Notes: generated by a model from the letters alone, not told the origin. Numbered from the stretch's first letter, positions 10,501-63,938 are shown. The stretch is DNA of 64,000 nucleotides from Thermoproteota archaeon (GCA_029258915.1 JAPDJU010000006.1:101183-165182); one strand, 5' to 3'. Program-made: numbers and translations.

Positions 10501-11106
10501 TTTAGATTTGTGGAGGAGCAGTTTAAACTGAGGTCTAGCTTTACGGCTTTCTATTTTTGTTCTCTTTCTTTCCTCACAGAACCCGCAAAGTTCAGGGTAT
10601 TCTATGGTTTCTTCCTCCTGAAGAACTTCGGTTTCACTACCGCACTCTAGACATTTGAAAACAGCTTTGTACAATCTCTGGATAACAGGGGTCATTCTCG
10701 TAATAATACCTTCTATCTGAACAAGTCTCTCAATATGCTCCGCTCCTAATTTACGTATGGGTACTGTTCTAGGTAAATTCCTGAACCTTACATAGAATTT
10801 TTCTGTTCTTTCAACAAGTTCTGGGTTTTCGCCTCTAACAATATCTTTCAAGGCTTCAGAAGCATATTCTAAGGTTATTCTAGGTTCTTCTAAAACCTTT
10901 AAAGCTAGATCAGGTTTTGTAAGTAAAAGGTCAGGAAAATCAACTATGAGAGATTTCTCACCCTTAATAGCAATATCTAAAATTTTATTCCAATACTTTA
11001 GCTTACCTTGTTTGTCCTTGAATGTTTTAAAGAAGTCTCTAAACTGGAGTTTTAAATCTACTTCTTTGGCTTCAATCATAGGTGCTTCTACTTCTTCTAC
11101 CGTCAT
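7531..11106 (-). CDS. mcm: MCM replicative helicase, interrupted by an intein in the Walker A P-loop
   Basis: N-terminal zinc motif CLECG...CGFCEE; Walker A GDPGVAK split from [31 protein letters not shown] by 486 aa; Walker B and arginine-finger region follow. Confidence 0.9.
   Translation of the reverse strand: [1191 protein letters not shown]
8566..10023 (-). mobile_element. Intein with LAGLIDADG homing-endonuclease domain, inside mcm (residues 362-847)
   Basis: Begins with Ser after GDPGVAK, block B TKDH, two LAGLIDADG motifs ([10 protein letters not shown] and [10 protein letters not shown]), ends HN followed by Ser +1; removing it restores a canonical MCM P-loop. Confidence 0.8.
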
Positions 11107-17556: not shown

Positions 17557-17617
17557 TATCTTGGCATCAAAACTGTATACGTAACTCATAGTGTCACCGA
17601 AGAAATAATTTGAGACT

Positions 17618-17632
17618 AAAGCTTATAAATTT
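17618..17632 (+). promoter_or_regulatory. Candidate BRE/TATA promoter for tnpB
   Basis: aaagcttataaattt lies about 30-45 nt upstream of the ATG at 17664 and is embedded in the inverted repeat TGAGAC...GTCTCA. Confidence 0.3.
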
Positions 17633-17663
17633 GTCTCACAAACTTATTATTGGTAGCCAGGGG

Positions 17664-18893
17664 ATGAGGGTCAGAGTAACTGCTAGGGTGAAAGCGGTTA
17701 TCCCTAACCCTAGCTACTATCATAAACTAATAGAGTTCTTAAGGGCATACCGTGATTGGACACAATACGTAGTAAATGAGATATGGAATTTAAACTATAT
17801 ACCATCAATGAAAGAATTACATTATAGATTCTACAAGGTATTGAGGCAACAAGGTTTTAGAGCACATCATTGTCATAAGATTGAGAGGAGAGCTAGAGAA
17901 GTAGTTAAAGCTACTAAGAAGAACAACGGAAGTAAACCAATTCTTAGGAAACTAACAGCTAGACTAGGTTGCCAAGATTACAAGTTAAACATGCAGGATA
18001 AAGTACTAAGAATAGCTGCCTTAAACAATGAATGGGTAGAGTTGGAACTACTATGGTATGAATATCTAGACAAATACTTTAACGATGGATGGAAGCTAAA
18101 GGAAATACTCGTTAGCTACCGTGAGAATGAAATGTGGGTCTACTTCACCTTCGAGAAGGAAGTAGTGCTTGGACAGCCGAGAACCGTTATGGGCGTAGAC
18201 ATTAATTTCAACAATATAACGTACACCATAATCGATATGAATGGTAAGCTCGTAACTATGGGTGTCATACCGTTTAATGGACTGAAGAAAGCGTTGGCTC
18301 ATAGGATTATTGCTGAGAAAATTCAGAGAAAGCATTCTAAGAAGTGGAGGTATGTCAAGGGGATAAGAGAATCCATAAGGAAGCACGGTAGGAGAGCAAG
18401 AAACATTCTTGTTGATTCATGCCACTACATATCAAGGAGGATAGTAGAGATAGCTAAGGAGTACAATACACTAACTGTCCTAGAGAACTTAAACAAACTT
18501 AGAATTAGAGCTAATGGGTCTAGGAGATATAATAAGAAGCTATCGCTGTGGACATACCGCAGAATACAGACCTATATCTACTACAAGGCATTAGTTAAGG
18601 GTGTTCCAGTAATTCATGCTGATCCGAGAAACACTTCTAAAAAATCACCCATAGGGAGAAAGCTTACGTTCAACAACTATAGATGGGCTAAGCTACCTAA
18701 CGGACATATTGTTACTAGAGATGCAGTTGCTTCATGGAATTTAGCACTTAAAGGTCTTAAGTTTCTAACCAGAGATGTGGGGTCTCGTGGTTTCGTGGAG
18801 ACCCCGAAAGCCCCTAACCAGATGCAAACCCAAGAAGGGATGAAGGGGATGCCCGAGCAAGTTTCCAAAATATCTATAATCACCAAAAGATAA
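17664..18893 (+). CDS. tnpB: IS200/IS605-family TnpB-like RuvC nuclease (OrfB) with degenerate zinc finger; no tnpA
   Basis: RuvC-I GVDINF, RuvC-II TVLENL and RuvC-III TRDAVASWNLA all present; the CxxC...CxxC zinc-finger cysteines are absent. ATG at 17664 preferred over the TTG at 17610. Confidence 0.7.
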   Translation: MRVRVTARVKAVIPNPSYYHKLIEFLRAYRDWTQYVVNEIWNLNYIPSMKELHYRFYKVLRQQGFRAHHCHKIERRAREVVKATKKNNGSKPILRKLTARLGCQDYKLNMQDKVLRIAALNNEWVELELLWYEYLDKYFNDGWKLKEILVSYRENEMWVYFTFEKEVVLGQPRTVMGVDINFNNITYTIIDMNGKLVTMGVIPFNGLKKALAHRIIAEKIQRKHSKKWRYVKGIRESIRKHGRRARNILVDSCHYISRRIVEIAKEYNTLTVLENLNKLRIRANGSRRYNKKLSLWTYRRIQTYIYYKALVKGVPVIHADPRNTSKKSPIGRKLTFNNYRWAKLPNGHIVTRDAVASWNLALKGLKFLTRDVGSRGFVETPKAPNQMQTQEGMKGMPEQVSKISIITKR

Positions 18894-50162: not shown

Positions 50163-50963
50163 TCACTCAATAGGCTTTTTTATCCCAGGAGGGTATGTGT
50201 AGTACTTCCCGAACTCCGTGTTTGCAAGTTCTTCAGCATAGAAAACAGGGCCATCAGAGCATACACGTAATCCTTTAGGGTCTAGTACGCATGAACCACA
50301 AATACCTATACCGCATTTAATGTATCTTTCAATAGAGATTTGACATTTAACTCCTAGTTCTAAGCATTTAAGCATAATTTTATATAGCATTCTTTCAGGA
50401 CCGCAGGCTAAAACATTATCGTATTTTGCAATAAGTTTTTCAGCAACTTCAACGGCAGATCCTTTAAACCCTAATGACCCATCATCTGTAGCAATGTAAA
50501 CCTCAGCATTGAATTTTCTAGCTTCACTGACGAACAGGAGTTTATCCTTGCTTCTAGCACCGATAATGTATGCTACATTTTTTCCTTTCTTCCTAAGTTC
50601 ATGTAGTGCATAAATTATTGGGGCAGCACCATATCCTCCAGCTATAAGTAGAAAATTACCTTTTTCATCTAAATTAAAACCCCTTCCATAAGGCCCCCTT
50701 ATAAATAGTCTTTCACCAGGCTTTAAACTATGTATTTTTCTTGTTGTTTCACCTACTGTAGCTACTGTTAACCTTAAAACGTTCCTTTCATACATTGAAG
50801 GGCTTATGGGAATTTCTTCAAAACCTGGAACCCAAACCATAACAAACTGTCCTGGAATAGGTTTTTCAATAGACGTTTCTAATAGAAGAGATTTAATGCC
50901 CTCAGCTTCCTTTACAACCTTAACTATCTCTGCTTTACACATTTTCAGTGTTTCAAGAAACAT
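50163..50963 (-). CDS. pyrK: Dihydroorotate dehydrogenase electron-transfer subunit
   Basis: FAD/NAD-binding fold with C-terminal Fe-S motif CGIGICGSC. Internal Met chosen as start; the track ORF extends to 51002. Confidence 0.75.
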   Translation of the reverse strand: MFLETLKMCKAEIVKVVKEAEGIKSLLLETSIEKPIPGQFVMVWVPGFEEIPISPSMYERNVLRLTVATVGETTRKIHSLKPGERLFIRGPYGRGFNLDEKGNFLLIAGGYGAAPIIYALHELRKKGKNVAYIIGARSKDKLLFVSEARKFNAEVYIATDDGSLGFKGSAVEVAEKLIAKYDNVLACGPERMLYKIMLKCLELGVKCQISIERYIKCGIGICGSCVLDPKGLRVCSDGPVFYAEELANTEFGKYYTYPPGIKKPIE

Positions 50964-52248
50964 TTTCAAAAACACCACCATATTTCTTAACATTAATTCC
51001 ATATCCTTTCTTAGAAACTATTTCACCATCAATAAATACTGGTTTTCCTCTAACAAATGTTGCTTTAACCTTTCCCCTAACCTTCCATCCATTAAATGGA
51101 GAGTGTTTTGCTTTACTGAAAAACGTTTTTGAATTCACAGTATACTCTTCACTTAAATCTACAACTGCTAAGTTTGCAAACATGTCCTCCTTTATTTTCC
51201 CGACGTATCTATGTAGTTCTAAAATTTTAGCTGGATTTGAAGAATACAGTTTAACTACATCTTTTAAGCTAATAATGTTCTTTACAGTTAAAGTTAACAA
51301 TAGAGGTAAGGCTGTTTCTAAACCTGGGAAACCGGGTTTAGGTTTTTCAGAGAATTTTTCATCGGAACTATGTGGTGCATGGTCTGTGGTTATAGCATCT
51401 ATTTTTCCTAGAGAAAGAGTTTTCAAAAGATTTTCCTGAACATTTTTGCTTCTAAGAGGAGGGTTAACTCTGAAGTACTTGTTTTTCAAGTGAAACTCTT
51501 TATTAAGCAATAAGTAATGGGGGCAAGTGTCTATGGTTATGTTACCTTTGTGTTTAACTAGTTTTACAATGTAGCTTGTTGTGACATGTGTTATATGTGC
51601 TTTAACCCTGTATTTCCTATGCAATTCTAATACTTTAACAGCTCCTGAAATCTCTGCATCTAAAGGTCTTTCATCGTTTTTAAACAAATATGGGTTTTCA
51701 GCATGAAAAACTGTTAGTATGTTTTTTGAAGAAACGTATTTTATAAGCTCTTCAAATACTTCTCTACAATTATGGAATAAGTTTTCAGGATAGACTTTTA
51801 CACCTATGGCTTTTCTTTCAAACCCCATTATTTCTCTTTTAACGTTTGGAACACCATAGTATAGAGCATAGTCTACTACAGATTTCTCGGAAGCAACTTT
51901 ATCTCTCATTTCTAAAACTGGTAAGGTGTTTGTTTTAGGCTTAGTATTAGGCATATCAGCTACTATAGTTACTCCTCCTGCCGCTGCAGCTGAGGTTCCA
52001 CTATAGAAGTCTTCCTTATATGATTCTTTAAAATCTCTCATGTGCGTATGAATATCTATTGCTCCAGGCAGTATCAATAATCTGTTTTTTAGAAAATTGA
52101 AGGTTTCTTCTTTAAACCTGCCTTTAAATGTTCCCTTAGATATTTTAGTTATAATGCCTAAATCGTTAATCTCTATAGTGACGTTGTCAACTATTCTCCC
52201 TTCGATAAACGCTTTCCCTATAATGACTGTTGCCACAATACCACACAT
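50953..52248 (-). CDS. pyrC: Dihydroorotase
   Basis: Amidohydrolase metal-binding DIHTHMRDF motif. Confidence 0.8.
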   Translation of the reverse strand: MCGIVATVIIGKAFIEGRIVDNVTIEINDLGIITKISKGTFKGRFKEETFNFLKNRLLILPGAIDIHTHMRDFKESYKEDFYSGTSAAAAGGVTIVADMPNTKPKTNTLPVLEMRDKVASEKSVVDYALYYGVPNVKREIMGFERKAIGVKVYPENLFHNCREVFEELIKYVSSKNILTVFHAENPYLFKNDERPLDAEISGAVKVLELHRKYRVKAHITHVTTSYIVKLVKHKGNITIDTCPHYLLLNKEFHLKNKYFRVNPPLRSKNVQENLLKTLSLGKIDAITTDHAPHSSDEKFSEKPKPGFPGLETALPLLLTLTVKNIISLKDVVKLYSSNPAKILELHRYVGKIKEDMFANLAVVDLSEEYTVNSKTFFSKAKHSPFNGWKVRGKVKATFVRGKPVFIDGEIVSKKGYGINVKKYGGVFENVS

Positions 52249-52249
52249 T

Positions 52250-52723
52250 CTAAAGCTGTTTAAACTGTTTAACTACATCCTCTCTAGTCGTATATCTTTC
52301 ACAGTATGAACATTGGAGAATTAAAGGCTCCTCCGATACCACCTTGAACCGAGGTTTAACATGCTCTCTAGGCCTGTTTGTTATACAGTTAGGGTTAGAA
52401 CATTTAACAATTCCATCGATTATTCTTGGAAGTTTTACTCTAACCTTCTTTACAACTTTGTAATCTCTTATGATGTTTATCGTAGCTTTAGGTGCTATTA
52501 AAGCTATCATGTTTACTTCTTTAGGAGCTAATTCTCTGCCTTCAACTTTAACTATATCCTTAAGTCCTAGTTTCTTACTTTCAACATTCATAACTATAGC
52601 TACTCTATATCCTTCAGATCCCTTTATACCTAAGATCTTTAAAACGTTAAGTGCGTTACCGGCAGATATATGGTCTATTACTGTTCCGTTCCTTATTTTT
52701 CTAACCAAGAGTTCTTCTTCCAT
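52250..52723 (-). CDS. pyrI: Aspartate carbamoyltransferase regulatory subunit
   Basis: C-terminal zinc domain with CSNPNC...CSYCE cysteines. Confidence 0.85.
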
Positions 52724-52725
52724 AC

Positions 52726-53646
52726 TTAATCACCACTAAGTATTAGTTTTAAAAGAGCCATTCTCACAGGAACACCATAAGATGCTTGTTTAAAATAGTA
52801 AGCATACCTTGTCACATCAACATCGAAGGATATTTCCTCAACTCTAGGCAGCGGATGTAATATCATTAGATCTTCTTTAGCATATTTTAAAATATTAGAG
52901 GTTACCCTATAGCTTCCTTTAACTTTTTCATATTCTGCTAGATCCGGAAATCTTTCCCTCTGAATTCTTGTAACGTAAAGTACATCAAGTCCCCCTAGAA
53001 CTTCTTTCAGGTTTTGTGTTTCTACGTATTTTACATTATGTTCTTCAAGAAATTCTCTTATCTCAGGCTTTACTCTGAGTTCCTGTGGAGATATGAGGTA
53101 TAGTTTTTTAGGTTTAAATATTGTTGAAGCTAAGATGAATGAGGAAGCTGCTCTACCATACTTGAGATCACCTAGAACACCTAAGGTTAAACCTTCAATA
53201 CCTCCTTTTTCCCTCCATATAGTATAGTAGTCTATCATGGCTTGTGTAGGGTGGTGATGTGTTCCATCTCCAGCATTTATAACAGGCGATTCAGCTATTT
53301 CCGCAGCGTAGCTGGCTGCTCCTTCTATCCTATGTCTAATAACTATCGCATTAGCGTAGGAGTCAAGCATTCTTATAGTGTCACCTAAATTTTCTCCTTT
53401 AGCTATAGACGTTTTTTCAACTTCTGAAAACACTAAAACTGACCCTCCAAGCCTAAGCATTGCTGTTTGAAAACTAAACATTGTTCTTGTACTTGGTTCA
53501 AAAAATGCTAGAGCTAAAACCTTACCTTGAAGAATGTTTATCCTTGATTTAGCATACTTCTCCATTTCCCTTGCTTCTTTGAATAATGTTATAAGATCTT
53601 CTTTTGTAAAATCGAGTATTGAAATAACATCTCTACCTTTAAACAT
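52726..53646 (-). CDS. pyrB: Aspartate carbamoyltransferase catalytic subunit
   Basis: STRT carbamoyl-phosphate-binding motif and HPLP motif. Start placed at the [13 protein letters not shown] Met; the track ORF extends to 53664. Confidence 0.85.
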
Positions 53647-54247
53647 GGTTAAACACCCTAACATAATCTATTATTTCACGATATTTTGTTTCAGAAATAA
53701 AACCTAAACTCCTAATATATTTGAGGAGCTCAGTAACTGTAAATATTGAAATTAACTTTACATTTTCCTTCTCCAAATTCCTTTTAGCACCCTGTTCTCT
53801 ATCAACAAATACTACAGCATATTCCGTTTTTACACTGTTTTCCCGCAGTATTCTAGTAGCTCTTAGTAAGCTACCTCCAGTAGTTGATACATCATCAACT
53901 ACTATAGCATATTTGCCTTCAGATATTTCTCCTTCAATAAGCTTCATAGCTCCATGCTCCTTAGGTTTCTTTCTAACATATGCTAAAGGCTTATTGAGAA
54001 TATAAGCTAAAATTGCAGCCCAAGGTATGCTTCCCGTTTCGATACCTACGATAACATCGACTTCAGGTATTTTCTCGACCACATTTTTATATGCTTCAAT
54101 TATTTCCCTAAGTAAATGGGGTTTTGAAAGCGCTTTTCTTAAATCTATGTAGTACGGGCTTTCAATACCTGATGCCAACTTGAATTTGCCAAAAAGAATT
54201 ATTCCCTCCTCGTAAAGTTTTTTAGCAAGCTCAGCCTTCTTCACCAT
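53639..54247 (-). CDS. pyrE: Orotate phosphoribosyltransferase
   Basis: PRPP-binding motif [11 protein letters not shown]. Confidence 0.85.
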
Positions 54248-54250
54248 AAT

Positions 54251-54970
54251 TTACCACCTCAACTTTTTTGCAAAGAACTCCGCAGATTTTTTAGGGTCTT
54301 TAGCCAGGTAAATGGATCTACCAATTATTTCAAAATCTGCTCCAGCACTAACAGCCGCTCCGGGTTCAGCACCTTGAACACCTACACCTGGGGATACTAT
54401 GATTTTATCCTTAGCTAGACTTCTTGCTTCTTTAATTAATTGAGGTCTTGTAGCAGGCAAAATTAATCCATCAACACCTGCCTTAAGTGAGGTATTAATG
54501 TTTTCATTAAACAACTTATTTATTGCTTCATCTGCTCCTTTATGCGTCATCGCACATACCGTTAAAAACCCCAGCCCGTTTCTTTTAGCTTCATCGACTA
54601 TTGTTTTCACAGCATCGTACCCTATTACTGCATGAGCTATTATAGCGTTAAAACCCATGAAAGCAGCTTCTTTAACGAGAAAGCTTGAAACATAGCCTAT
54701 ATCTGCTACTTTCATGTCTGCTATGAAAAAGCAGTTCCATGCTTTATTTGTAATCAGTTCTTTAACGGCATCCGGTGTAAGTGAAAGTATTGTTGGTAAC
54801 CCTATTTTCACGCCTGCAACATATTCTTCAACAGATGAAAGCAGCTTCTCCAATTTATCAGCTATTTTAAACCTATGTTCTCTATGTTCCGCATAGAGGT
54901 CTACGGCTAGAATTAACCTGCTATTCTTTCGAGAAGCTATCTTTAGAGCCTTCGAGACAAAAACTGACAA
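54251..54970 (-). CDS. pyrF: Orotidine 5'-phosphate decarboxylase
   Basis: LILAVDL and DMKVADIG motifs. Confidence 0.8.
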   Translation of the reverse strand: MSVFVSKALKIASRKNSRLILAVDLYAEHREHRFKIADKLEKLLSSVEEYVAGVKIGLPTILSLTPDAVKELITNKAWNCFFIADMKVADIGYVSSFLVKEAAFMGFNAIIAHAVIGYDAVKTIVDEAKRNGLGFLTVCAMTHKGADEAINKLFNENINTSLKAGVDGLILPATRPQLIKEARSLAKDKIIVSPGVGVQGAEPGAAVSAGADFEIIGRSIYLAKDPKKSAEFFAKKLRW

Positions 54971-55146: not shown

Positions 55147-55779
55147 ATGAGTACTGTAGAGGAAATTGACATCAGCAAATTAGAGAAGCTTGTTGAAGAA
55201 GCTTTAGAAAAGTATGAACCCTATGATGTTATTGAAAAAGCTTTAAGACCTGCTATGGAAGAGGTTGGCAGGAAGTTTGAACGTGGAGAATACTTTATTG
55301 CAGAACTTGTTTTAGTTGCTGATGTGTTTAAAGAGATTTTTAACAAATTCTTTAAACCAAGAGTTTCTAAGGTAAGTAAAGCTAAACCTATGGGTAAAGT
55401 AGTCATAGGAACTATTGAAGGAGATATTCACGATATAGGTAAAAGCATTGTAGCTGCAATTTTGGAAGCATCAGGATTCGAAGTTATAGACTTAGGTGTA
55501 GATGTTTCCGCTGATAAATTTGTTAAGGAAGCGGAAAAACATAGTGCAGATGTTATAGCTATGTCTTCTCTTCTAACAACAACAATGCTTAACATGGGCA
55601 AAGTTACTGAGTTGTTGAAAGAGAAGGGCATAAGAGATAAGTACATTGTTATTATTGGTGGGGCAGCTGCTTCAGAAGAGTTCGCTAGAAAAATTGGAGC
55701 AGATGCTTACGGCATAGACGCATATGATGGTTTAAAGAAATTAAAGAAACTTATTGCTGAAAAGCGGAAACAACAATAG
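55147..55779 (+). CDS. Corrinoid (cobalamin-binding) protein of a methyltransferase system
   Basis: B12-binding DxHxxG motif (GDIHDIGK) with an N-terminal helical cap. Confidence 0.75.
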   Translation: MSTVEEIDISKLEKLVEEALEKYEPYDVIEKALRPAMEEVGRKFERGEYFIAELVLVADVFKEIFNKFFKPRVSKVSKAKPMGKVVIGTIEGDIHDIGKSIVAAILEASGFEVIDLGVDVSADKFVKEAEKHSADVIAMSSLLTTTMLNMGKVTELLKEKGIRDKYIVIIGGAAASEEFARKIGADAYGIDAYDGLKKLKKLIAEKRKQQ

Positions 55780-55791
55780 ATTAAACTAGCT

Positions 55792-56850
55792 CTATAGTGA
55801 AACCTCAGGTAAGCCAATAAGTTTTCTAACAGCATTAACCTTAGCTAGTGCAAGTTTTTCTCCGAAACTTCTTTTAGGATATGGCCTATGAGTTACGCTT
55901 AACACTATTTTCCTGGGCCCATGCTTATCTAGCATTTTCTTAACAACTTTAACAAAGTCTTTAACATCAATGCTATCGTTTAAGACGAGGTCTATTGAAA
56001 CACCTGTATGGAAAACTGCTTTCCAACCTATATCCCTTCTAGCTTTAGAAACTCTATTTACCCAGTTTAATGCTGCTTCCACGGTGCTTTTACTGCAAAG
56101 ATCTAAAGGATGTATTCCATCATATATTTCAGCTAGTTTCCGTATGTATCCTAACTTAGTAACATCACCATCACAATGTAGGATGGCTTTTTTACCTTTG
56201 GCTTTAACAGCATTGACAAATATTCTATGCCATTTAAGATAGCAATTATCCATAAACCATGTAGGATATATTGGACTACTATAGGTAAACGCGTCATCAG
56301 CTATTCTAACAGCATCAACGATATCTAGTTCTCTAGCATATTTTATTACCTCTAAAATATACTTCGCCAGTTTATCATACAGTTTAATTGCTTTTTTACG
56401 GTTAAGCAGGAGTAGTTTTGAAAAATCTAAGTTATGATAAGCTAAATCATACTTATAGCCGCTTTCAGGCCTAGGAGGCATCATAGAATATTCAGAGTAT
56501 TCTGTAGGACCCACTACTTCAAAAACTATAAACAAATCCTTCCCATAGAAAGGTTCAACATTTTCCTTAAACCCCTTAACACAAGAATCTACTACATCAC
56601 TTTCACTAGGCCAGCTATAATCTGTTTCAACATCTAATCTCTCAACCCATTCAAGTAAACTTTCACCTTCACGCCTACGAAACGGTCCGCCACTGTAAAA
56701 CCAGTCTTCCCATAGATAAACCCATCCATGGCCTAAAAGCACATCCCCAAGTTTTGCTTCATGATTCTTCTCAATACTTTCAAAATGCAATGGCAAACGA
56801 TCGTAAAAAACATCTTCATAAACAGCATATACCAAGTCTCTACTTTTCAC
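55792..56850 (-). CDS. Uroporphyrinogen decarboxylase-family protein (MtaA/CmuA-like methylcobamide methyltransferase)
   Basis: N-terminal DRLP motif and ILHCDGD segment consistent with the URO-D fold. Confidence 0.55.
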   Translation of the reverse strand: MKSRDLVYAVYEDVFYDRLPLHFESIEKNHEAKLGDVLLGHGWVYLWEDWFYSGGPFRRREGESLLEWVERLDVETDYSWPSESDVVDSCVKGFKENVEPFYGKDLFIVFEVVGPTEYSEYSMMPPRPESGYKYDLAYHNLDFSKLLLLNRKKAIKLYDKLAKYILEVIKYARELDIVDAVRIADDAFTYSSPIYPTWFMDNCYLKWHRIFVNAVKAKGKKAILHCDGDVTKLGYIRKLAEIYDGIHPLDLCSKSTVEAALNWVNRVSKARRDIGWKAVFHTGVSIDLVLNDSIDVKDFVKVVKKMLDKHGPRKIVLSVTHRPYPKRSFGEKLALAKVNAVRKLIGLPEVSL

Positions 56851-57037
56851 ATCAAACCCCGTAAGCTAAACCTTCAAAAATACTTCTATTAAGACAGCTA
56901 TTAAATATTTAAAACGTAGGTATGCTTTTACATCTCATAAACATGTAAGTAAAAAATATAGCTTCTTAGATTATTTAAGGAAAAACTTTAATTAAAGTTT
57001 TTTCTTTAACAATCTGAACATATGTTGGTGTTATAAT

Positions 57038-58057
57038 ATGGTTGGTAAGCTTTCCCCTTCATTTTTAAGCAAATACGTTTTTTCCAGGATAGGTGTTAAA
57101 GATCCATCGGTTATTGTCGGTCCTTCCATCGGTGAAGACTCTGCAATCATCGATTTACATGATGGCAGGGTTTTGGTTGCCCACGTAGATCCTATAACAG
57201 GTGCCGTTGAGTTTCTCGGCTGGCTTGCCGTACATATATCCTGTAACGATGTTGCTGTAACTGGGGCTAAACCTCAATGGCTCCTATCTGTACTTTATCT
57301 TCCGGAAAACGCTAGTGAAGAACTTATAGATAAAATAACTAAACAAATAGATTCAGCTGCTAAGGAATTAGGATCTATGATTGTAGGAGGACATTCAGAA
57401 TATACCCCTGGACTAAATAGGCCATTAATATCCATGACAGCTCTCGGTATTGTAGATAAAGATAAGGCCGTAAGAACAGGCGGTGCTAGAGTAGGTGACG
57501 CTATTATAATGACTAAAACAGCTGCTATAGAGGGAACAGCAATACTTTCCACGGATTTTGCCGATCAGCTATTGTCTAAAGGAGTATCTCACGACGTTAT
57601 TAAACGCGGTGCTGAATTCATTAGAAAAGTTAGTGTTGTTAAGGAAGCATTATTACTTGCTAAAGAAGGTTATGCTACATCAATGCATGACCCTACTGAG
57701 GGAGGAATACTTGGAGGCTTAACCGAAATAGCATTTGCTTCTAATAAAACCATAGAGGTTTGGGAAGAAAAAATACCTGTAGCTGAAGAAACAGAGGTAA
57801 TGGCTAAAGCTCTTAACGTTGACATCCTTAAGCTCATAAGTTCTGGAGTATTAGTAGCAGCTGTCCCTAAGGCTCTTGCGGATGAAGCAGTATCGCTGCT
57901 TAGAAAACATGGAATTAAAGCATCTATAATAGGGTTAGTACATGAACACAAACATGGCCTAGTAGTTTTACATAGAAAAGATGGTAGAAAAGAAGTTTAC
58001 GATGAAGTTTATGTTGAAGATGAACTTGTTAGGTTATGGAAGGAGCTTAAAAGGTAA
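57038..58057 (+). CDS. PurM-like (AIR synthase-related) protein, HypE/ThiL-like
   Basis: PurM-fold N-domain motif GPSIGEDSAII...VAHVDP and SCNDVAVTGAKP; lacks the HypE C-terminal PRIC. Confidence 0.6.
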   Translation: MVGKLSPSFLSKYVFSRIGVKDPSVIVGPSIGEDSAIIDLHDGRVLVAHVDPITGAVEFLGWLAVHISCNDVAVTGAKPQWLLSVLYLPENASEELIDKITKQIDSAAKELGSMIVGGHSEYTPGLNRPLISMTALGIVDKDKAVRTGGARVGDAIIMTKTAAIEGTAILSTDFADQLLSKGVSHDVIKRGAEFIRKVSVVKEALLLAKEGYATSMHDPTEGGILGGLTEIAFASNKTIEVWEEKIPVAEETEVMAKALNVDILKLISSGVLVAAVPKALADEAVSLLRKHGIKASIIGLVHEHKHGLVVLHRKDGRKEVYDEVYVEDELVRLWKELKR

Positions 58058-58062
58058 GGCTT

Positions 58063-58884
58063 ATGGAAGTTCTTCCATTTGCAAAATGCAGATTAGACGG
58101 TAACTGTCTCAAATGCCCATTTAGAGGCAAAGCTATAGTTTATGGGCCATTTAAATCTCATAGAAGAGGAATCTCCATAGGGATAAACCTATTCCCATGT
58201 AGGAAAGTATGTAGTTTTAACTGTGTATACTGTTTTCGAGGATTTACAGAAGTAAAAACTTTAAAACCCGCTATTCCACCATACAGCCTTTCACCTGCTA
58301 TTCTTAGAGAAGCCTTAGAGAAAGCTATTAACACTATAGGTAGTGTTGATGCCATAGACTTTTCAGGTAGCGGTGAACCAACACTTCATCCTAAACTTAA
58401 ATCATACATAAATACAGTTAAAGAATTTGCTAAAGAAAAGAGCTTAAATGCAAGCATAGGTATATTTACAAATTCTACAACATTATTTAGAAACAACATT
58501 GTAAAGGTCTTAAAAGAATTAGATCATGTTGAAGCAAAACTTGATACCGTTATTGAGTGGAAGTTTAGAGTAATAAATAGACCTCACAAATTATTGTCGA
58601 TTAAGAAAATTATTGAAGGCCTATTTAGTTTTAGAAAAGTTTTCGAAGGAACATTAGCAATACAGATTATGCTGCTTAAATATAATAGGGTAAACAATTA
58701 TGGTTTAAAAGATGCAAGGCTTATTGGAGAAACATTGTTAACCATAGAACCCGACATAGTCCATGTATATGTTCCATACCGTATACCCCGCCTATCTAGT
58801 GTTTCAAAACCATCTAAACAGGAAGTTGTAGAGTTCTCTAAAATCCTAAGAGAATACGGCCTCAAAGTTAAATCGTTTATATGA
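58063..58884 (+). CDS. Radical SAM protein (activase-like)
   Basis: CSFNCVYC cluster motif and SGSGEPTLHP SAM-binding motif; additional N-terminal Cys pairs. Confidence 0.7.
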   Translation: MEVLPFAKCRLDGNCLKCPFRGKAIVYGPFKSHRRGISIGINLFPCRKVCSFNCVYCFRGFTEVKTLKPAIPPYSLSPAILREALEKAINTIGSVDAIDFSGSGEPTLHPKLKSYINTVKEFAKEKSLNASIGIFTNSTTLFRNNIVKVLKELDHVEAKLDTVIEWKFRVINRPHKLLSIKKIIEGLFSFRKVFEGTLAIQIMLLKYNRVNNYGLKDARLIGETLLTIEPDIVHVYVPYRIPRLSSVSKPSKQEVVEFSKILREYGLKVKSFI

Positions 58885-58899
58885 CCGCAGGCGAAGGTA

Positions 58900-60144
58900 A
58901 TGGGCGAAGAAGTTTTAAAGCCCATTCCAAGAGGTAAGAGAGTTTTCAAAGGCATAGATGTGTTTTTACTATGGGCTGGCGGTAATACTTGTCTTGCAAC
59001 AATATTTACAGGCGGTATTATAGGTCCTAAACTTGGAATACTTTATTCAATAGCCATAATACTTATTGGTTCAACTATAGGAGGGTTCTTACTAGGTTTA
59101 GTTGCATTACTAGGTGAACGGAAAGGTCTACCAACAATGGTTCTTACGAGAAAAGTCGTTACAACGAAAGGCTCCTATATCGCATCAGTTCTTAACGCTA
59201 TTCAGCTTATCGGCTGGACTTCAATACTTCTCTATGCAAGTGCTGAAGCAGCTGCGAGCGCTATGGAAGCTTTGCTTGGAGAAACAGTGCTTGTAAATAC
59301 TATAGTATGGGTTATTGTAATAGGTGTGGTTGAAACAGTATATACGTTAATAGGGCCTAAAAGATGGGTTCTATGTCAGAGAATAGCTGTTACTACATTA
59401 ATTATCGTGCTATGTTATGAAGCATATGCATTATTTAATTACATGCTATCTCAACCTGTGAGCCTTACGTCTCCCCCTAGCCGTGCTGATGTTCTTTGGG
59501 GTTTCGACATGGTTTTAGCTACAGCAGTTTCTTGGGCACCTCTTGTAGCAGACTATTCTAGACTTGCCAAATCCAGTTTAGGAGCTATTATAGGAACTTG
59601 GTGGGGATATACTACAACAAGCTACGTACTATACTCTATAGGTACGTTGGCCGCAGTAATTACAGGAGCTTATCTTGGTGATCCTACGCAGGTTGCAATA
59701 AGCTTAGGTCTTAGCGCAGTAGTTTTCATATTTATTGCTATAAGTGCTGTAACTACGAATCTACTAAATCTATATTCAGCAGTAGTATCAACAATGAACG
59801 TGTTCCCAAGAACTAGCTATAGGAGCCTCGTAATATTTTTCGGCACCATATCCACTGTTTTAGCAGCATTCCCCGTGTTCTTTATTTACTTTGAAGAATT
59901 CCTTTACTACATAGGCTCAGTATTTGTACCATTAATAGCAGTCCTAATAATACATTATATTTACGGGAAAAAGAAAATCATTACGTTAAGGTCTGCTGAA
60001 ACCGTTGGACTCATAAGCTGGATTATTGGTGTACTAATCAGCGGATTTGTTATTGAAAATATAGGGTTTGGAGCCACCATAGTAGCATTACTAACAACAG
60101 CTTGTGTAGATGCATTACTACTAACAATTATATCTACAAAGTAG
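58900..60144 (+). CDS. NCS1-family nucleobase/vitamin-precursor:cation symporter (cytosine/HMP permease-like)
   Basis: Twelve-TM pattern with N-terminal WAGGNT motif. Confidence 0.65.
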   Translation: MGEEVLKPIPRGKRVFKGIDVFLLWAGGNTCLATIFTGGIIGPKLGILYSIAIILIGSTIGGFLLGLVALLGERKGLPTMVLTRKVVTTKGSYIASVLNAIQLIGWTSILLYASAEAAASAMEALLGETVLVNTIVWVIVIGVVETVYTLIGPKRWVLCQRIAVTTLIIVLCYEAYALFNYMLSQPVSLTSPPSRADVLWGFDMVLATAVSWAPLVADYSRLAKSSLGAIIGTWWGYTTTSYVLYSIGTLAAVITGAYLGDPTQVAISLGLSAVVFIFIAISAVTTNLLNLYSAVVSTMNVFPRTSYRSLVIFFGTISTVLAAFPVFFIYFEEFLYYIGSVFVPLIAVLIIHYIYGKKKIITLRSAETVGLISWIIGVLISGFVIENIGFGATIVALLTTACVDALLLTIISTK

Positions 60145-60440
60145 CTTCAATTCATTGCAGATTGTTCATGATTTATACACATAAAATAGTGTTTTCTTCA
60201 TTACTTTAACATGTGATGTTATTTGACTTTTTAGTTGCGAATAACTTTGAGCATGTTTTAAAGCGTAGAATTCATGGTAATGGGAAAATCAAGTTCCTTA
60301 TTAAATAGCTAATACATACACAGTCTGTACCATTTTAATATTTAAACGTTTACATCAAAGTAATACCGGGATGGATTAATAAAGGTTTAAATATTTGTGT
60401 AAATCCCTACATATGTGGGGGGCTAACTATTAAAGTAGAT

Positions 60441-61961
60441 GTGGTTCTTGTTGTTAATTTTGGTGGGCAATACGCTCATTTAATATCTCGAAGGCTAAGG
60501 GAACTAAATATTTATACTGAAGTTGTTTCGCATAGGAGTCTAAAAAGCGTAATTGCCCAGAAAAATGTTAAAGCCCTTATTCTTTCAGGAGGACCTGCTA
60601 GCGTATATGATAATGAGGAAGACATTAAGAATTTAGACTTCATATTAAACCTTAACATACCAGTTTTAGGTATTTGTTACGGTCACCAACTCCTAGCTAA
60701 GCTTGTCAGCGGCGACGTTAAAAGGGGTAAAGGGGAGTTTGGACGTACAGAAATTAAAATACTAAAAGACGATCCTCTGTTTAAAGGATGGGAGCAGAAA
60801 GAAAATGTATGGATGAGCCATAGAGACTACGTAGCAGAATTACCAGATATAGCTGAAGTTTTAGCTGTTTCTGAAAGAGACTATATTGCAGCTTTTAAGC
60901 TTAAAAACAAGCCCATATATGGTGTACAGTTCCATCCCGAAGTTCATCATACTGCTAAAGGCAGGAAACTCCTCAACAATTTCATAGAGGTTTCAGGAAT
61001 TAAAAAACGTTGGAAACTTAAAGACATAGTAGAGGATATTATTAACTACATTAGTAGAACTATTGAACCTAACGCTAAAGCCTTAGCAGCTATCAGCGGT
61101 GGCATAGACTCAACGGTTGCTGCAGTATTAGTTAAGAAGATTATTGGTGACAGATTAGTTCCTATATTAGTAGATCATGGATTGTTCCGTAAAGGAGAAG
61201 TTGAGGAATCAATTAAATGTTTAAGAAAGATAGGTTTAGAACCTGTTGTAGTAGATGCTAGAGAAAGGTTTCTCAAGAAACTCTGGGGTACTAGAGATTG
61301 TGAAGAGAGAAGGAGAATCATAGGCAACACATTTGCTGAAATATTTAGCGAACTTGCAGAAGAAGATTCAAACATAAAATACTTAGTTCAAGGAACAACA
61401 TATCCAGATGTTATTGAAAGCGGGCATGTAGAAAAAGCAGATAAAATAAAAAGCCACCATAATGTTGCTGCTCTTCCATCGTGGCTTAAGCTTAAAGTAG
61501 TAGAGCCTCTTAAATTCCTCTATAAAGATGAAGTAAGAAGAATAGCTAAAATAATTGGAGTTCCTAACGAAATAATTAGTAAACACCCATTTCCGGGGCC
61601 AGGGTTTGCGGTAAGAGTTATTGGAGTTTTTACACCTGAAAAGCTTGAGATTTCTAGAAATGCTTCTAAAATACTTGAAGATGAGCTTAGAAAAGAAAAC
61701 CTTTACAATAATGTTTGGCAAGCTTTTGCAGTAGTAGGCGATGACACTTGGGTTGGGATTAAGGGAGATTCTAGAGATGTAGGGTACATAGTTACGTTGA
61801 GAATTGTTGTTAGTGAAGATGCTATGACAGCTGACTGGTATAGAATACCTTACGATGTTCTCGATAGAGTTTCGAGAAGAATAGTAAGCGAGTTAGATAG
61901 GGTAACAATGGTAACATATGCTATATCATCTAAACCCCCCAGCACCATAGAACCTTGCTAA
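60441..61961 (+). CDS. guaA: GMP synthase (glutamine-hydrolysing), fused GATase and ATP-pyrophosphatase domains
   Basis: GATase GICYGHQLL and PP-loop SGGIDSTV motifs; GTG start. Confidence 0.9.
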   Translation: MVLVVNFGGQYAHLISRRLRELNIYTEVVSHRSLKSVIAQKNVKALILSGGPASVYDNEEDIKNLDFILNLNIPVLGICYGHQLLAKLVSGDVKRGKGEFGRTEIKILKDDPLFKGWEQKENVWMSHRDYVAELPDIAEVLAVSERDYIAAFKLKNKPIYGVQFHPEVHHTAKGRKLLNNFIEVSGIKKRWKLKDIVEDIINYISRTIEPNAKALAAISGGIDSTVAAVLVKKIIGDRLVPILVDHGLFRKGEVEESIKCLRKIGLEPVVVDARERFLKKLWGTRDCEERRRIIGNTFAEIFSELAEEDSNIKYLVQGTTYPDVIESGHVEKADKIKSHHNVAALPSWLKLKVVEPLKFLYKDEVRRIAKIIGVPNEIISKHPFPGPGFAVRVIGVFTPEKLEISRNASKILEDELRKENLYNNVWQAFAVVGDDTWVGIKGDSRDVGYIVTLRIVVSEDAMTADWYRIPYDVLDRVSRRIVSELDRVTMVTYAISSKPPSTIEPC

Positions 61962-61973
61962 AGGTGAGTAATT

Positions 61974-62579
61974 ATGGATGTAGTTTACATATCATGGGAT
62001 AAAGCAATAAAGATGTGCTATAAGTTAGCTGAAAAAGTGTTAAAATCTAATCAAGGATTCGATGTAGTAGTGGCTATTTCACGTGGTGGCTTAATACCTG
62101 CACGTATAATTAGCGATATTCTAGGCATCGATGAACTGTACACTATTAGGTCAAAATTTTGGGGTACAGGAGGAACTATAGCCTCAGAACCCTTAGTTAA
62201 GGTTCCCCAAAACATTGATGTAAAAAATAAAGATATCTTAGTTGTTGACGAAGTTGTTGATACTGGAGCTACAATGACGAAAACTGTGAAAATAATTAAA
62301 AATTTAGGAGCAAGGAAGGTGAGAGCAGCTACATTACATTACAAGTTAAGAAGCAAATTTATACCAGATTACTATGTGGAGAAGGTTAAAAAATGGGTAT
62401 GGATCTTCTATCCCTGGTCTTTCTCTGAAACACTCTTCGGCCTAGCTAAAATGCGCGGCTACAAAGATGTCATTCATGGTGCCTCCGAGATAATTAGGGA
62501 GTTAAGAATAAAAGAAGTGCTAATAGATTCTGAAAGCTTAAAACTATCATTAAAAGCCTATTTGGAAGGGGGAATGTGA
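61974..62579 (+). CDS. Purine phosphoribosyltransferase (hypoxanthine/guanine PRTase-like)
   Basis: PRPP-binding motif LVVDEVVDTGAT. Confidence 0.65.
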   Translation: MDVVYISWDKAIKMCYKLAEKVLKSNQGFDVVVAISRGGLIPARIISDILGIDELYTIRSKFWGTGGTIASEPLVKVPQNIDVKNKDILVVDEVVDTGATMTKTVKIIKNLGARKVRAATLHYKLRSKFIPDYYVEKVKKWVWIFYPWSFSETLFGLAKMRGYKDVIHGASEIIRELRIKEVLIDSESLKLSLKAYLEGGM

Positions 62580-62582
62580 GAA

Positions 62583-63938
62583 ATGACTACACATTATTCG
62601 TCAATATGTCCTTTTACCTACAGATATGGCTCCGTTGAAATGAGGAAAATATTGGAAAGACGCAATATTTTAAGAAAGTTTATAGAAGCAGAAGCCGCAT
62701 TAATGAAAGCCTTGGAAACCGTTGGTATTGCTCCTAAAGAATGCTATAAGAAAGTATTAGATACAATACCGGAAATAAGGCCTGAAGATATAGATGAATT
62801 GGAGAAGATAATAGGTCATGACATAGCATCTTTAGCTATCCTAATTGCTAAACGCTGCGGCGAATGTGGTAAATATGTGCATTTAGGCGCTACTAGTTAC
62901 GATATAGTCGATACTGCATGGGCTCTTATAGTAAGAGATGCTTTAGGAATAATTAAAAGCAAGTTAAGAAAAATTATTGAGAAAACTATTGAACTTGCTA
63001 TTAAGCATCAAGACACATTAGTTGTTGGTAGAACACATGGCCAACACGCACTACCTATAACGTTTGGTTTTAAACTTGCCAACTATATTTATGAACTGTC
63101 AAGAAGCTATGAAAGACTATGTGAGCTTGAAAAAAGAGTTTTAAGATGTAAAATGTCTGGAGCTGTAGGTACCATGGCTGCGTGGGGCGATAAAGGTTTA
63201 CACGTAGAGTCTACAGTGAGCCAAGTACTTCAACTAGAGCCCCATGTAATAGCTACACAGGTTGCTCCAAGAGATGGATTTGCAGAACTTATATCATCTC
63301 TAGCTATTTTAGCTAGTCAAATGGATAGATTGGCTCTTGAAGCTAGAGAATTAAGCCGGCCTGAAATAGCCGAATTAGATGTAGCTTATACTAAAGTAGG
63401 CAGTAGCACTATGCCTCATAAGAAAAACCCTGTAATAGCTGAGAGAATATCAGGTTTAGCTAAAATAGCTAGAGCCCTAGTTACTGTAGCTTTAGAAAAC
63501 ATTCCACTAATGCATGAAAGAGATTTAACTAATAGTAGTAGTGAAAGATTCCTAATTCCACATGCATTACTTGTTGTAGATCAAATATTAATTGATACTT
63601 ACAACATGTTAGAAGTCCTTAAAATTAATGAGAAAGCTATGAAGAAAAACCTTGAACTAAGCAAAGACACTATAGCATCGGAATGTTTAATGGTAAAGCT
63701 AGTGTTAAAAGCCAATATTCCACGACATGAAGCACACATGTTGTTGGTTAACCTTTCAAATAAGGCTTTAAATGAAAAAAGAAGTTTCAAAGAAATAGTA
63801 TTTGAAAGCAATATTGCAGCTCTTTTAACTAAGAAAGATATTGAAGAATGTTTTGACTTAAGCAGCTATCTGGGTAGCTATAAGCAGCTTATCTATAGAG
63901 CAATAAACTATGCTAAAAACGTTATGAAGAGGTGTTGA
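62583..63938 (+). CDS. purB: Adenylosuccinate lyase
   Basis: Fumarase/ASL signature region GSSTMPHKKNP. Confidence 0.85.
   Translation: MTTHYSSICPFTYRYGSVEMRKILERRNILRKFIEAEAALMKALETVGIAPKECYKKVLDTIPEIRPEDIDELEKIIGHDIASLAILIAKRCGECGKYVHLGATSYDIVDTAWALIVRDALGIIKSKLRKIIEKTIELAIKHQDTLVVGRTHGQHALPITFGFKLANYIYELSRSYERLCELEKRVLRCKMSGAVGTMAAWGDKGLHVESTVSQVLQLEPHVIATQVAPRDGFAELISSLAILASQMDRLALEARELSRPEIAELDVAYTKVGSSTMPHKKNPVIAERISGLAKIARALVTVALENIPLMHERDLTNSSSERFLIPHALLVVDQILIDTYNMLEVLKINEKAMKKNLELSKDTIASECLMVKLVLKANIPRHEAHMLLVNLSNKALNEKRSFKEIVFESNIAALLTKKDIEECFDLSSYLGSYKQLIYRAINYAKNVMKRC

Follow-up and report, generated by a model that had tools for sequence, protein, structure and literature searches.

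A PurM-like hub protein with radical-SAM and NCS1-importer accessories in Thermoproteota: a conserved operon and a possible uptake-and-conversion cassette

The module described here lies in a 64,000-nucleotide (nt) stretch of DNA from an uncultured, heat-loving Thermoproteota archaeon (GCA_029258915.1, JAPDJU010000006.1:101183-165182), referred to as the window. It consists of three genes on the plus strand: a gene for a PurM-like protein of 339 amino acids (aa) at 57038..58057, a gene for a radical S-adenosylmethionine (SAM) protein of 273 aa at 58063..58884, and a gene for an NCS1 importer of 414 aa at 58900..60144. The three genes form one operon, which is real and conserved, not as a fixed triad but as a widespread PurM-like protein, called the hub below, accompanied by accessory genes. 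As to function, we give an even chance to the reading that the three genes constitute an uptake-and-conversion cassette whose substrate is a small heterocycle, such as a precursor of a vitamin or nucleobase.

The genes are tightly packed. In the table of open reading frames (ORFs) the gaps between them are 5 nt (58058-58062) and 15 nt (58885-58899), which matches the coordinates from which the earlier note on this DNA had proposed a single operon. A purine-rich stretch resembling a Shine-Dalgarno sequence precedes the start codons of both the radical-SAM gene (AAGGTAAGG..ATG) and the NCS1 gene (GAAGGTAATG). The annotated start of the PurM-like ORF is the earliest possible in its frame; no in-frame start lies further upstream.

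The conservation of the module was assessed with one genome per GTDB species, a sample in which at least 512 loci encode a protein related to the PurM-like one. Of these loci, the 80 best (43-74% identity) were examined for neighbours; the loci of relatives, cited below by their L numbers, comprise about 17 kb each. The metagenome-assembled genomes (MAGs) that carry the 80 loci are labelled Desulfurococcales, Ignisphaera, Thermofilaceae, Pyrodictiaceae, Acidilobaceae, Aeropyrum, Thermoproteaceae, Bathyarchaeia, Nezhaarchaeales, Culexmicrobium and Korarchaeum. The hub family is large, and in hyperthermophilic Thermoproteota, Bathyarchaeia and Korarchaeia it is common and usually stands alone: among the 80 loci, 7 have a close radical-SAM gene directly downstream, 5 have an NCS1 gene, and most have neither. 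A decayed fragment of the radical-SAM gene lies beside the hub in L009. Dependence in the opposite direction is strict. Wherever a radical-SAM relative is at least 40% identical, in 24 of 24 loci, the hub lies directly upstream (these loci were not de-duplicated, and several are the same or near-identical contigs). Similarly, the NCS1 gene adjoins the hub in all 15 loci of its subfamily that have readable flanks, a 16th locus (L176) ending at a contig edge. The radical-SAM and NCS1 genes therefore depend on the hub in a one-way manner.

The order of the genes varies among lineages. The NCS1 gene stands last in the window type of arrangement (hub, radical-SAM, NCS1), first in L004 (NCS1, hub, radical-SAM), and next to the hub with no radical-SAM gene in L171/172 (NCS1, hub), where the hub is 42% identical to that of the window. 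The spacing between the hub and radical-SAM genes in relatives ranges from -44 to +29 nt by mechanical ORF calls, and the two genes overlap or abut in database gene calls. The distance matrices of the three proteins correlate (r = 0.81-0.89; for hub versus radical-SAM, 0 of 2000 permutations reach the observed value). In a neighbour-joining tree, the hubs linked to a radical-SAM gene fall into at least five subclades interleaved with unlinked hubs. No alignment column separates the linked from the unlinked hubs, and on this ground the idea that the radical-SAM enzyme modifies the hub was rejected. The hub is self-sufficient, and the radical-SAM and NCS1 genes are accessories that have been lost or relocated repeatedly.

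One such change can be followed among close relatives of the window. In L081-83, a hub-radical-SAM pair is present (hub 88% and radical-SAM protein 92% identical to those of the window) and the NCS1 gene is missing, whereas the equally close L091 has kept it. When L081:8823-9486 is compared with window 58885-60376, the NCS1 gene is found to be replaced by about 600 bp of unrelated DNA with two short hydrophobic ORFs (58 and 75 aa), so that the 3' end of the module has undergone gene turnover recently.

Archaeal genomes are gene-dense, short gaps are common in them, and the neighbours of the hub are otherwise highly variable across the 80 sampled loci; one could therefore suppose that three unrelated genes have simply been packed together by chance in a compact genome. 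The 24/24 and 15/15 adjacencies, their persistence across rearranged gene orders from Desulfurococcales-like archaea to Bathyarchaeia, and the correlated distance matrices make this hardly credible. The three genes are co-conserved elsewhere, and so do not fit the case that the earlier note had set against its own proposal, namely genes that are associated nowhere else and that belong each to an unrelated, well-characterised family. The check that it had suggested, conservation of the triad across archaea, comes out positive for the association of the genes and negative for the triad as a unit, since the hub is widespread and each of the other two genes is optional.

The hub belongs to the PurM superfamily. 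Both domains of the characteristic two-domain fold exceed the Pfam gathering threshold, AIRS with 72.4 bits (cut-off 24) and AIRS_C with 85.7 bits (cut-off 23.1). No more specific NCBIfam model reaches its cut-off: HypE (TIGR02124) gives 128.2 bits against 251.6, ThiL (TIGR01379) 100.2 against 184.15, SelD (TIGR00476) 94.7 against 125, methanogenesis marker 2 69 against 365, the sll0787 family (TIGR04049) 50.6 against 321, and PurM (TIGR00878) 40.4 against 236. Relative to its cut-off, SelD is the nearest of these models (95 of 125 bits). An AlphaFold2 model of the hub (pLDDT 91) matches HypE, SelD, ThiL and PurM structures with TM scores of 0.65-0.81; the top match in the PDB is HypE of T. 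kodakarensis (TM 0.81, 25-27% identity), followed by SelD and ThiL (the latter about 0.7). Sequence matches in the PDB likewise give HypE (E = 3e-23) over ThiL (1e-11).

HypE functions in [NiFe]-hydrogenase maturation, where it uses ATP to dehydrate a C-terminal Cys-thiocarboxamide, which becomes thiocyanate. It matches the hub best, in structure as well as among NCBIfam models and PDB sequences, and both proteins have the PurM fold of two domains, Asp-rich ATP/Mg motifs and a DPT(E/R)GG motif (HDPTEGG in the hub, RDPTRGG in HypE); the likeness to HypE covers the centre and C-terminal part of the hub (residues ~49-319). In contrast to HypE, the hub has no C-terminal Cys (PR[IV]C motif). Its C-terminus reads ...LWKELKR (DELVRLWKELKR), and an alignment of 17 sequences (A1) contains no invariant C-terminal Cys but a conserved helix, with D328 and E329 invariant and W334 present in at least 90%. 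The hypC, hypD and hypF genes are not nearby. When all 127 genes immediately next to the hub at the 80 loci were scanned with Pfam, no hyp or hydrogenase family was among the 25 most frequent, and none flanks the module in the window.

The N-terminus of the hub resembles that of SelD instead. It shares the loop K-(L/I)-S-P-x-x-L, in which the invariant K4 of the hub ('KLSPSFL') aligns with the catalytic K20 of SelD ('KISPKVL'), and the GGHS motif is common to both. Unlike SelD, the hub begins with MVGK and thus has no Cys or selenocysteine (Sec) ahead of the lysine, and its genomic context is not related to selenium. Because a HypE-like fold and a SelD-like N-terminus are combined with neither the HypE Cys nor the SelD Cys/Sec, the hub is a distinct, uncharacterised clade of the PurM superfamily, akin to HypE, SelD and ThiL. 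The absence of the residues that define HypE and SelD chemistry also means that it probably performs an undescribed reaction of the superfamily. Current annotation gives little guidance: the orthologue in the cultured Ignisphaera cupida is named by NCBI only 'AIR synthase family protein', and the HypE or HupF labels that other pipelines attach to relatives are contradicted by the missing carrier Cys. A family that occurs in at least 512 species-level archaeal genomes is therefore either named in general terms or mislabelled.

The third protein is a member of the NCS1 family (Pfam Transp_cyt_pur, PF02133, 79.4 bits against 23.5, with residues 8-363 covering the 12-TM core). Together with the AIRS/AIRS_C and Radical_SAM matches, this bears out the folds named in the earlier note, which had recognised a PurM/AIR-synthase protein, a radical-SAM enzyme with a CSFNCVYC cluster, and an NCS1 transporter of the cytosine/hydroxymethylpyrimidine (HMP) type; the importer is of the CytX/HMP type. 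Among NCBIfam models, CytX (TIGR02358) is not reached (236.5 bits against 309.85) and is far nearer than CodB (80 bits against 326). The subfamily comprises 27 clusters at 49% identity or more, after which identity drops to 38% or less, where annotated CytX proteins begin. The importer belongs to a subfamily of its own, small in size and sister to CytX. Since none of the three proteins reaches an NCBIfam equivalog cut-off, the statement of the earlier note that no pathway can be named with confidence still stands; the profile assignments that it had sought yield a superfamily for the hub and for the radical-SAM protein, and a subfamily for neither (HypE, ThiL, SelD and PurM in the case of the hub).

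A second type of importer is also found next to the hub. Among the 127 immediate neighbours, the most frequent Pfam family is Radical_SAM (12), followed by GNAT (5-6), TldD/PmbA (4), Thg1 (4) and ECF-ribofla_trS (PF07155; 3). The three PF07155 proteins, RibU-like S components of energy-coupling factor (ECF) transporters, score 107-136 bits and are encoded directly beside the hub and in the same orientation, 1-11 nt away from it (L036:2310-3017, L052:7138-7986 and L080:1839-2378). In a Thermofilum MAG the hub precedes the S component, and in a Thermoproteota MAG and a Korarchaeum MAG the S component comes first. The hub is thus linked, in several orders and lineages, to two unrelated families of vitamin-type importers, and this recurrent link favours a role in salvage or uptake. 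It goes some way towards separating the two options that the earlier note had placed side by side, salvage of a precursor and maturation of a cofactor, without settling the matter.

If the module is an uptake-and-conversion cassette, it may work via the following steps, of which the chemistry, the complex and the substrate are inferred. The three genes would be transcribed as one operon from a palindromic promoter region at the 5' edge of the module. The NCS1 protein, a CytX paralogue, would import the substrate or its precursor. By analogy with every characterised member of its superfamily, the hub would spend ATP on phosphorylating the substrate at an oxygen or heteroatom, either in a kinase-type reaction or in an activation of an amide or lactam by which dehydration, amination or cyclisation is driven. 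An accessory radical step on that compound would fall to the radical-SAM enzyme, which is coupled to the hub in translation and probably forms a complex with it; as only some lineages have the gene, this step would be needed in those lineages only. Characterised PurM-superfamily enzymes indeed use ATP to phosphorylate an oxygen or heteroatom: the amide oxygen in the case of PurM and PurL, a carboxamide that becomes a nitrile in the case of HypE, a phosphate in ThiL, and selenide in SelD. With its ATP/Mg motifs intact, the hub most likely does likewise, and because it has no internal carrier Cys it would act on a free small molecule; the repeated adjacency to importers suggests that this molecule or its precursor can be imported. 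As the NCS1 protein is close to CytX, substituted pyrimidines like HMP come first among the candidates, so that an HMP- or thiamine-type pyrimidine is our leading guess for the substrate, and a weak one.

CytX has been proposed as an HMP importer from comparative genomics, and an importer encoded beside a kinase-type enzyme is also found in bacterial thi salvage clusters (PMC5874261). The module resembles such clusters, and a more specific explanation can be built on this resemblance. The hub would be a divergent, non-orthologous kinase of the ThiL type acting on a thiamine-related phosphate acceptor (thiamine monophosphate, thiamine or HMP phosphate), the NCS1 protein would import HMP or thiamine, and the radical-SAM enzyme would repair or convert the pyrimidine or the thiazole. 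ThiL belongs to the same superfamily as the hub; its model TIGR01379 aligns over the full length of the hub (100 bits), and ThiL structures superpose with a TM score of ~0.7. No vitamin kinase other than ThiL is known in the PurM superfamily. The CytX-like importer, the additional link of the hub to vitamin-type ECF S components, and a stand-alone housekeeping distribution typical of thiL point in the same direction. However, the ThiL score is about half of its cut-off, the HypE and SelD models match as well or better, and the PDB comparison prefers HypE (3e-23) to ThiL (1e-11). Neither the hub nor the importer reaches the cut-off of its thiamine-related model, no thi gene recurs among the 127 immediate neighbours of the hub, and thiD, thiE and thiM are missing, as is a THI-box between 54 and 62 kb of the window. 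The radical-SAM protein has no counterpart in thiamine salvage, and its role would be left unexplained. A canonical COG0611 ThiL is reported in Thermoproteales. On balance, this explanation is unlikely. Should the hub prove to be nothing more than a divergent ThiL beside a transporter, a widespread misannotation would nevertheless be corrected.

The radical-SAM protein is a small, stand-alone member of its superfamily by the Pfam model Radical_SAM (PF04055, 47 bits against a cut-off of 29.5, above the gathering threshold), a partial TIM-barrel core and a CxxxCxxC cluster motif, CSFNCVYC at residues 50-57 (C50-x3-C54-x2-C57). In the family alignment an invariant SxRRGxSxG directly precedes the invariant C50, C54 and C57, and an N-terminal Cx5Cx2C knuckle occurs in most but not all members. 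The best NCBIfam match is a W-cofactor maturase with 41 bits against a cut-off of 380, and TYW1/Taw1 (TIGR03972) gives 29.1 bits against 318, with the MoaA cut-off likewise not reached; the JGI label 'wyosine synthetase' on homologues reflects similarity at the level of the COG only. Compared with the pyruvate formate-lyase activating enzyme (PFL-AE), TYW1 and viperin, the protein shows at most 20% identity and approaches no equivalog score. No glycyl-radical enzyme is adjacent to it, so that it is not assigned to PFL-AE. Its N-terminal Cys triad is not universal in the family.

Below 40% identity, the relatives of the radical-SAM protein form a large family in bacteria and archaea with the signature GPxxSRRxGxSLG...CxxxCxYC. 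Among these relatives (bacteria, other archaea and gut metagenomes) the hub is not directly adjacent and the neighbours are variable; in one of them, L105, a 31%-identical gene of the PurM superfamily lies ~3 kb upstream. A longer paralogue of 315-328 aa with a C-terminal extension and the motif FGPVxSRRLGRSLGVNNVPYKTCSYSCxYCQLGRT is present at L006:3048-4025, L021:1731-2678, L014:8575-9558 and L029:4009-4980. It belongs to a broad unnamed family that is widespread in bacteria and finds no assignment in the PDB or NCBIfam. The hub is its direct neighbour in L006, L021 and L014, whereas 3 kb separate the two in L029; L006 has the short form too. In a bacterial locus of Saccharicenans (L087:955-4589), a distant homologue is located 1.4-5 kb downstream of queC-queD-queE and queF, a proximity that is treated as coincidence.

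Several observations weigh against the uptake-and-conversion cassette. In fold, the radical-SAM protein comes closest to PFL-AE and NifB, enzymes whose targets are proteins or metalloclusters, and its distant relatives adjoin NifX-like and MinD-like iron-sulfur (Fe-S) proteins; a role in maturation fits these two facts equally well. No thiamine, riboflavin or other cofactor gene recurs beside the module, and hyp, thi and rib biosynthetic families are all absent from the 25 most frequent families of the hub neighbours at the 80 loci. The cargo of the importer may not be HMP, because the CytX score is below the cut-off and a separate protein named as canonical CytX by PGAP exists in Desulfurococcaceae, in the same order; the thi context typical of CytX, a THI-box (54-62 kb) or thi genes among the hub neighbours, is also lacking. 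The complex of the hub with the radical-SAM protein is deduced from gene overlap only, and the linkage counts include redundant contigs. Finally, as the hub is unlinked to a transporter in most genomes, its pathway could be an endogenous one.

In a maturation role, a HypE-like dehydratase (the hub) and a PFL-AE/NifB-like maturase (the radical-SAM protein) would together build or modify the ligand of a metallocofactor or a protein residue, with the transporter being either incidental or the supplier of the ligand. Such a role would account for the structural neighbours of both enzymes, HypE on the one hand and PFL-AE and NifB on the other, and for the Fe-S-related context of the distant radical-SAM relatives. 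It is opposed by the lack in the hub of the C-terminal Cys, which is the carrier residue of HypE, and by the absence of hyp or maturation genes among the 127 immediate neighbours. The hub, moreover, is repeatedly linked to transporters, which come from two importer families and stand in several gene orders, and the fact that no residue tells hubs linked to a radical-SAM gene from unlinked ones argues against the hub as the modified target. We regard a maturation role as quite unlikely.

Within the cassette reading, a bolder version may be formulated: the hub and the radical-SAM enzyme would constitute a previously unknown route of two enzymes in anaerobic hyperthermophilic archaea, which would make, repair or reactivate the heterocycle of an essential cofactor after importing its precursor. 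The thiamine pyrimidine could be reached in this way, independently of ThiC or by salvage, or a heat-damaged vitamin fragment could be rescued. This version is speculative and rather improbable. Its consequence would be new chemistry both for a clade of the PurM superfamily and for the large 'GPxxSRRxGxSLG' radical-SAM family, which is also widespread in bacteria. More generally, the recurrent linkage of the hub to two unrelated importer families and two radical-SAM paralogues offers a testable route to its substrate and to the function of the broad unnamed radical-SAM family. Should that substrate be a precursor of a cofactor, the module would also close a gap in the cofactor supply of nutritionally dependent hyperthermophiles.

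In the literature, full-text searches yielded no paper on the hub family. The only published operon found that pairs an AIR-synthase-like protein with a radical-SAM protein is the Nit1C cluster, in which members of the sll0787 and MSMEG_0568 families, respectively, occur with a GNAT protein, a flavoprotein and a nitrilase, and whose function was left unresolved (PMC1199592). Nit1C differs from the present module in being bacterial and in its radical-SAM subfamily. The module contains no nitrilase, GNAT protein or flavoprotein, and no nitrilase is present in the window or the related loci. The superfamilies involved and the logic of an importer combined with an ATP-activating enzyme are already known; the enzyme clades, their pairing and the architecture of hub plus accessories are undescribed.

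The setting of the module in the window suggests yet another explanation, in which it would belong with its neighbours to nucleotide metabolism and serve the salvage or modification of a standard nucleobase, the hub acting for instance as an AIR synthase or in the activation of a base. The module lies between a pyrC-pyrI-pyrB-pyrE-pyrF cluster (50953-54970, minus strand) and the genes guaA, a phosphoribosyltransferase (PRT) gene and purB (60441-63938, plus strand), with purA next in relatives (L081). The guaA-PRT-purB(-purA) genes follow the module also in L081-83, L091 and L175, and NCS1 proteins classically carry cytosine, uracil or purines. This synteny, however, is confined to the window's own lineage (~88-99% identity of the PurM-like protein), and the neighbours are unrelated in L002-L008, L029, L084-86, L095-97, L173 and L177. 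The scores for PurM (40 against 236 bits) and CodB (80 against 326) also speak against it. In addition, when the window is compared with L081/L091, nucleotide similarity is interrupted between the NCS1 gene and guaA: it stops after the module and restarts at the upstream region of guaA (60377), which is itself conserved. This break argues for a transcription unit separate from guaA. Salvage or modification of a standard nucleobase is accordingly an improbable function for the module.

At the 5' edge of the module, a near-perfect palindrome with 24-nt arms (56968..57015, core AAGGAAAAACTTTAATTAAAGTTTTTTCTT) is a candidate promoter/operator. It is 48 nt long, its arms are 88% complementary and are the longest among the high-complementarity palindromes of the window, and its TATA-like centre (TTTAATTAAA) lies 46 nt 5' of the first ATG. 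The palindrome is kept in L081 and L091, and the nucleotide similarity of the window to these two loci begins exactly at 56971, the DNA further upstream being unrelated. We infer that the region acts as promoter and probably as operator. When treated as RNA, the same region has a predicted fold of z = -3.9, and it may alternatively form an RNA hairpin in the leader. A riboswitch-like element, which the earlier note had considered worth looking for, was rejected: the 187-nt upstream region matches no Rfam family, a permissive E-value search of 54-62 kb returned chance matches of the microRNA type only, with no THI-box or other cis-regulator, and the hairpin is a DNA palindrome with a TATA-like centre. 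In other lineages, different long palindromes without a common motif are found at -37 to -84 from the first start codon. Divergent from the triad and upstream of it, a gene for a ~98-aa winged-helix protein with a weak match of the ArnR1 type is present in several Desulfurococcales-like loci (L002:7054-7347, L003 and L177). It is absent from the window and could encode a local regulator.

Upstream of the palindrome, the window encodes a corrinoid protein of the methyltransferase type (55147-55779, plus strand; TIGR02370, 192 bits) and, convergent with it, a 352-aa protein (55792-56850, minus strand) that has no Pfam, NCBIfam or PDB match. The two genes were ruled out as parts of the module because they are missing upstream of it in L081 and L091.

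The window as a whole has a G+C content of 33-38% and contains archaeal housekeeping genes for MCM with an intein, RFC, Cdc6 and the CCA-adding enzyme. Near-identical copies of the module locus occur in metagenome assemblies (L175), and an NCS1 protein of 96% identity is labelled 'Thermoprotei archaeon'. The intein that splits the MCM helicase gene (7531-11106, minus strand; 1191 aa in total) has a LAGLIDADG homing-endonuclease domain. A 427-aa ORF (17610-18893, plus strand), flanked by cdc6 and a THUMP-domain gene, has a Cas12f1-like TNB domain, as in transposon nucleases of the TnpB/IscB type.

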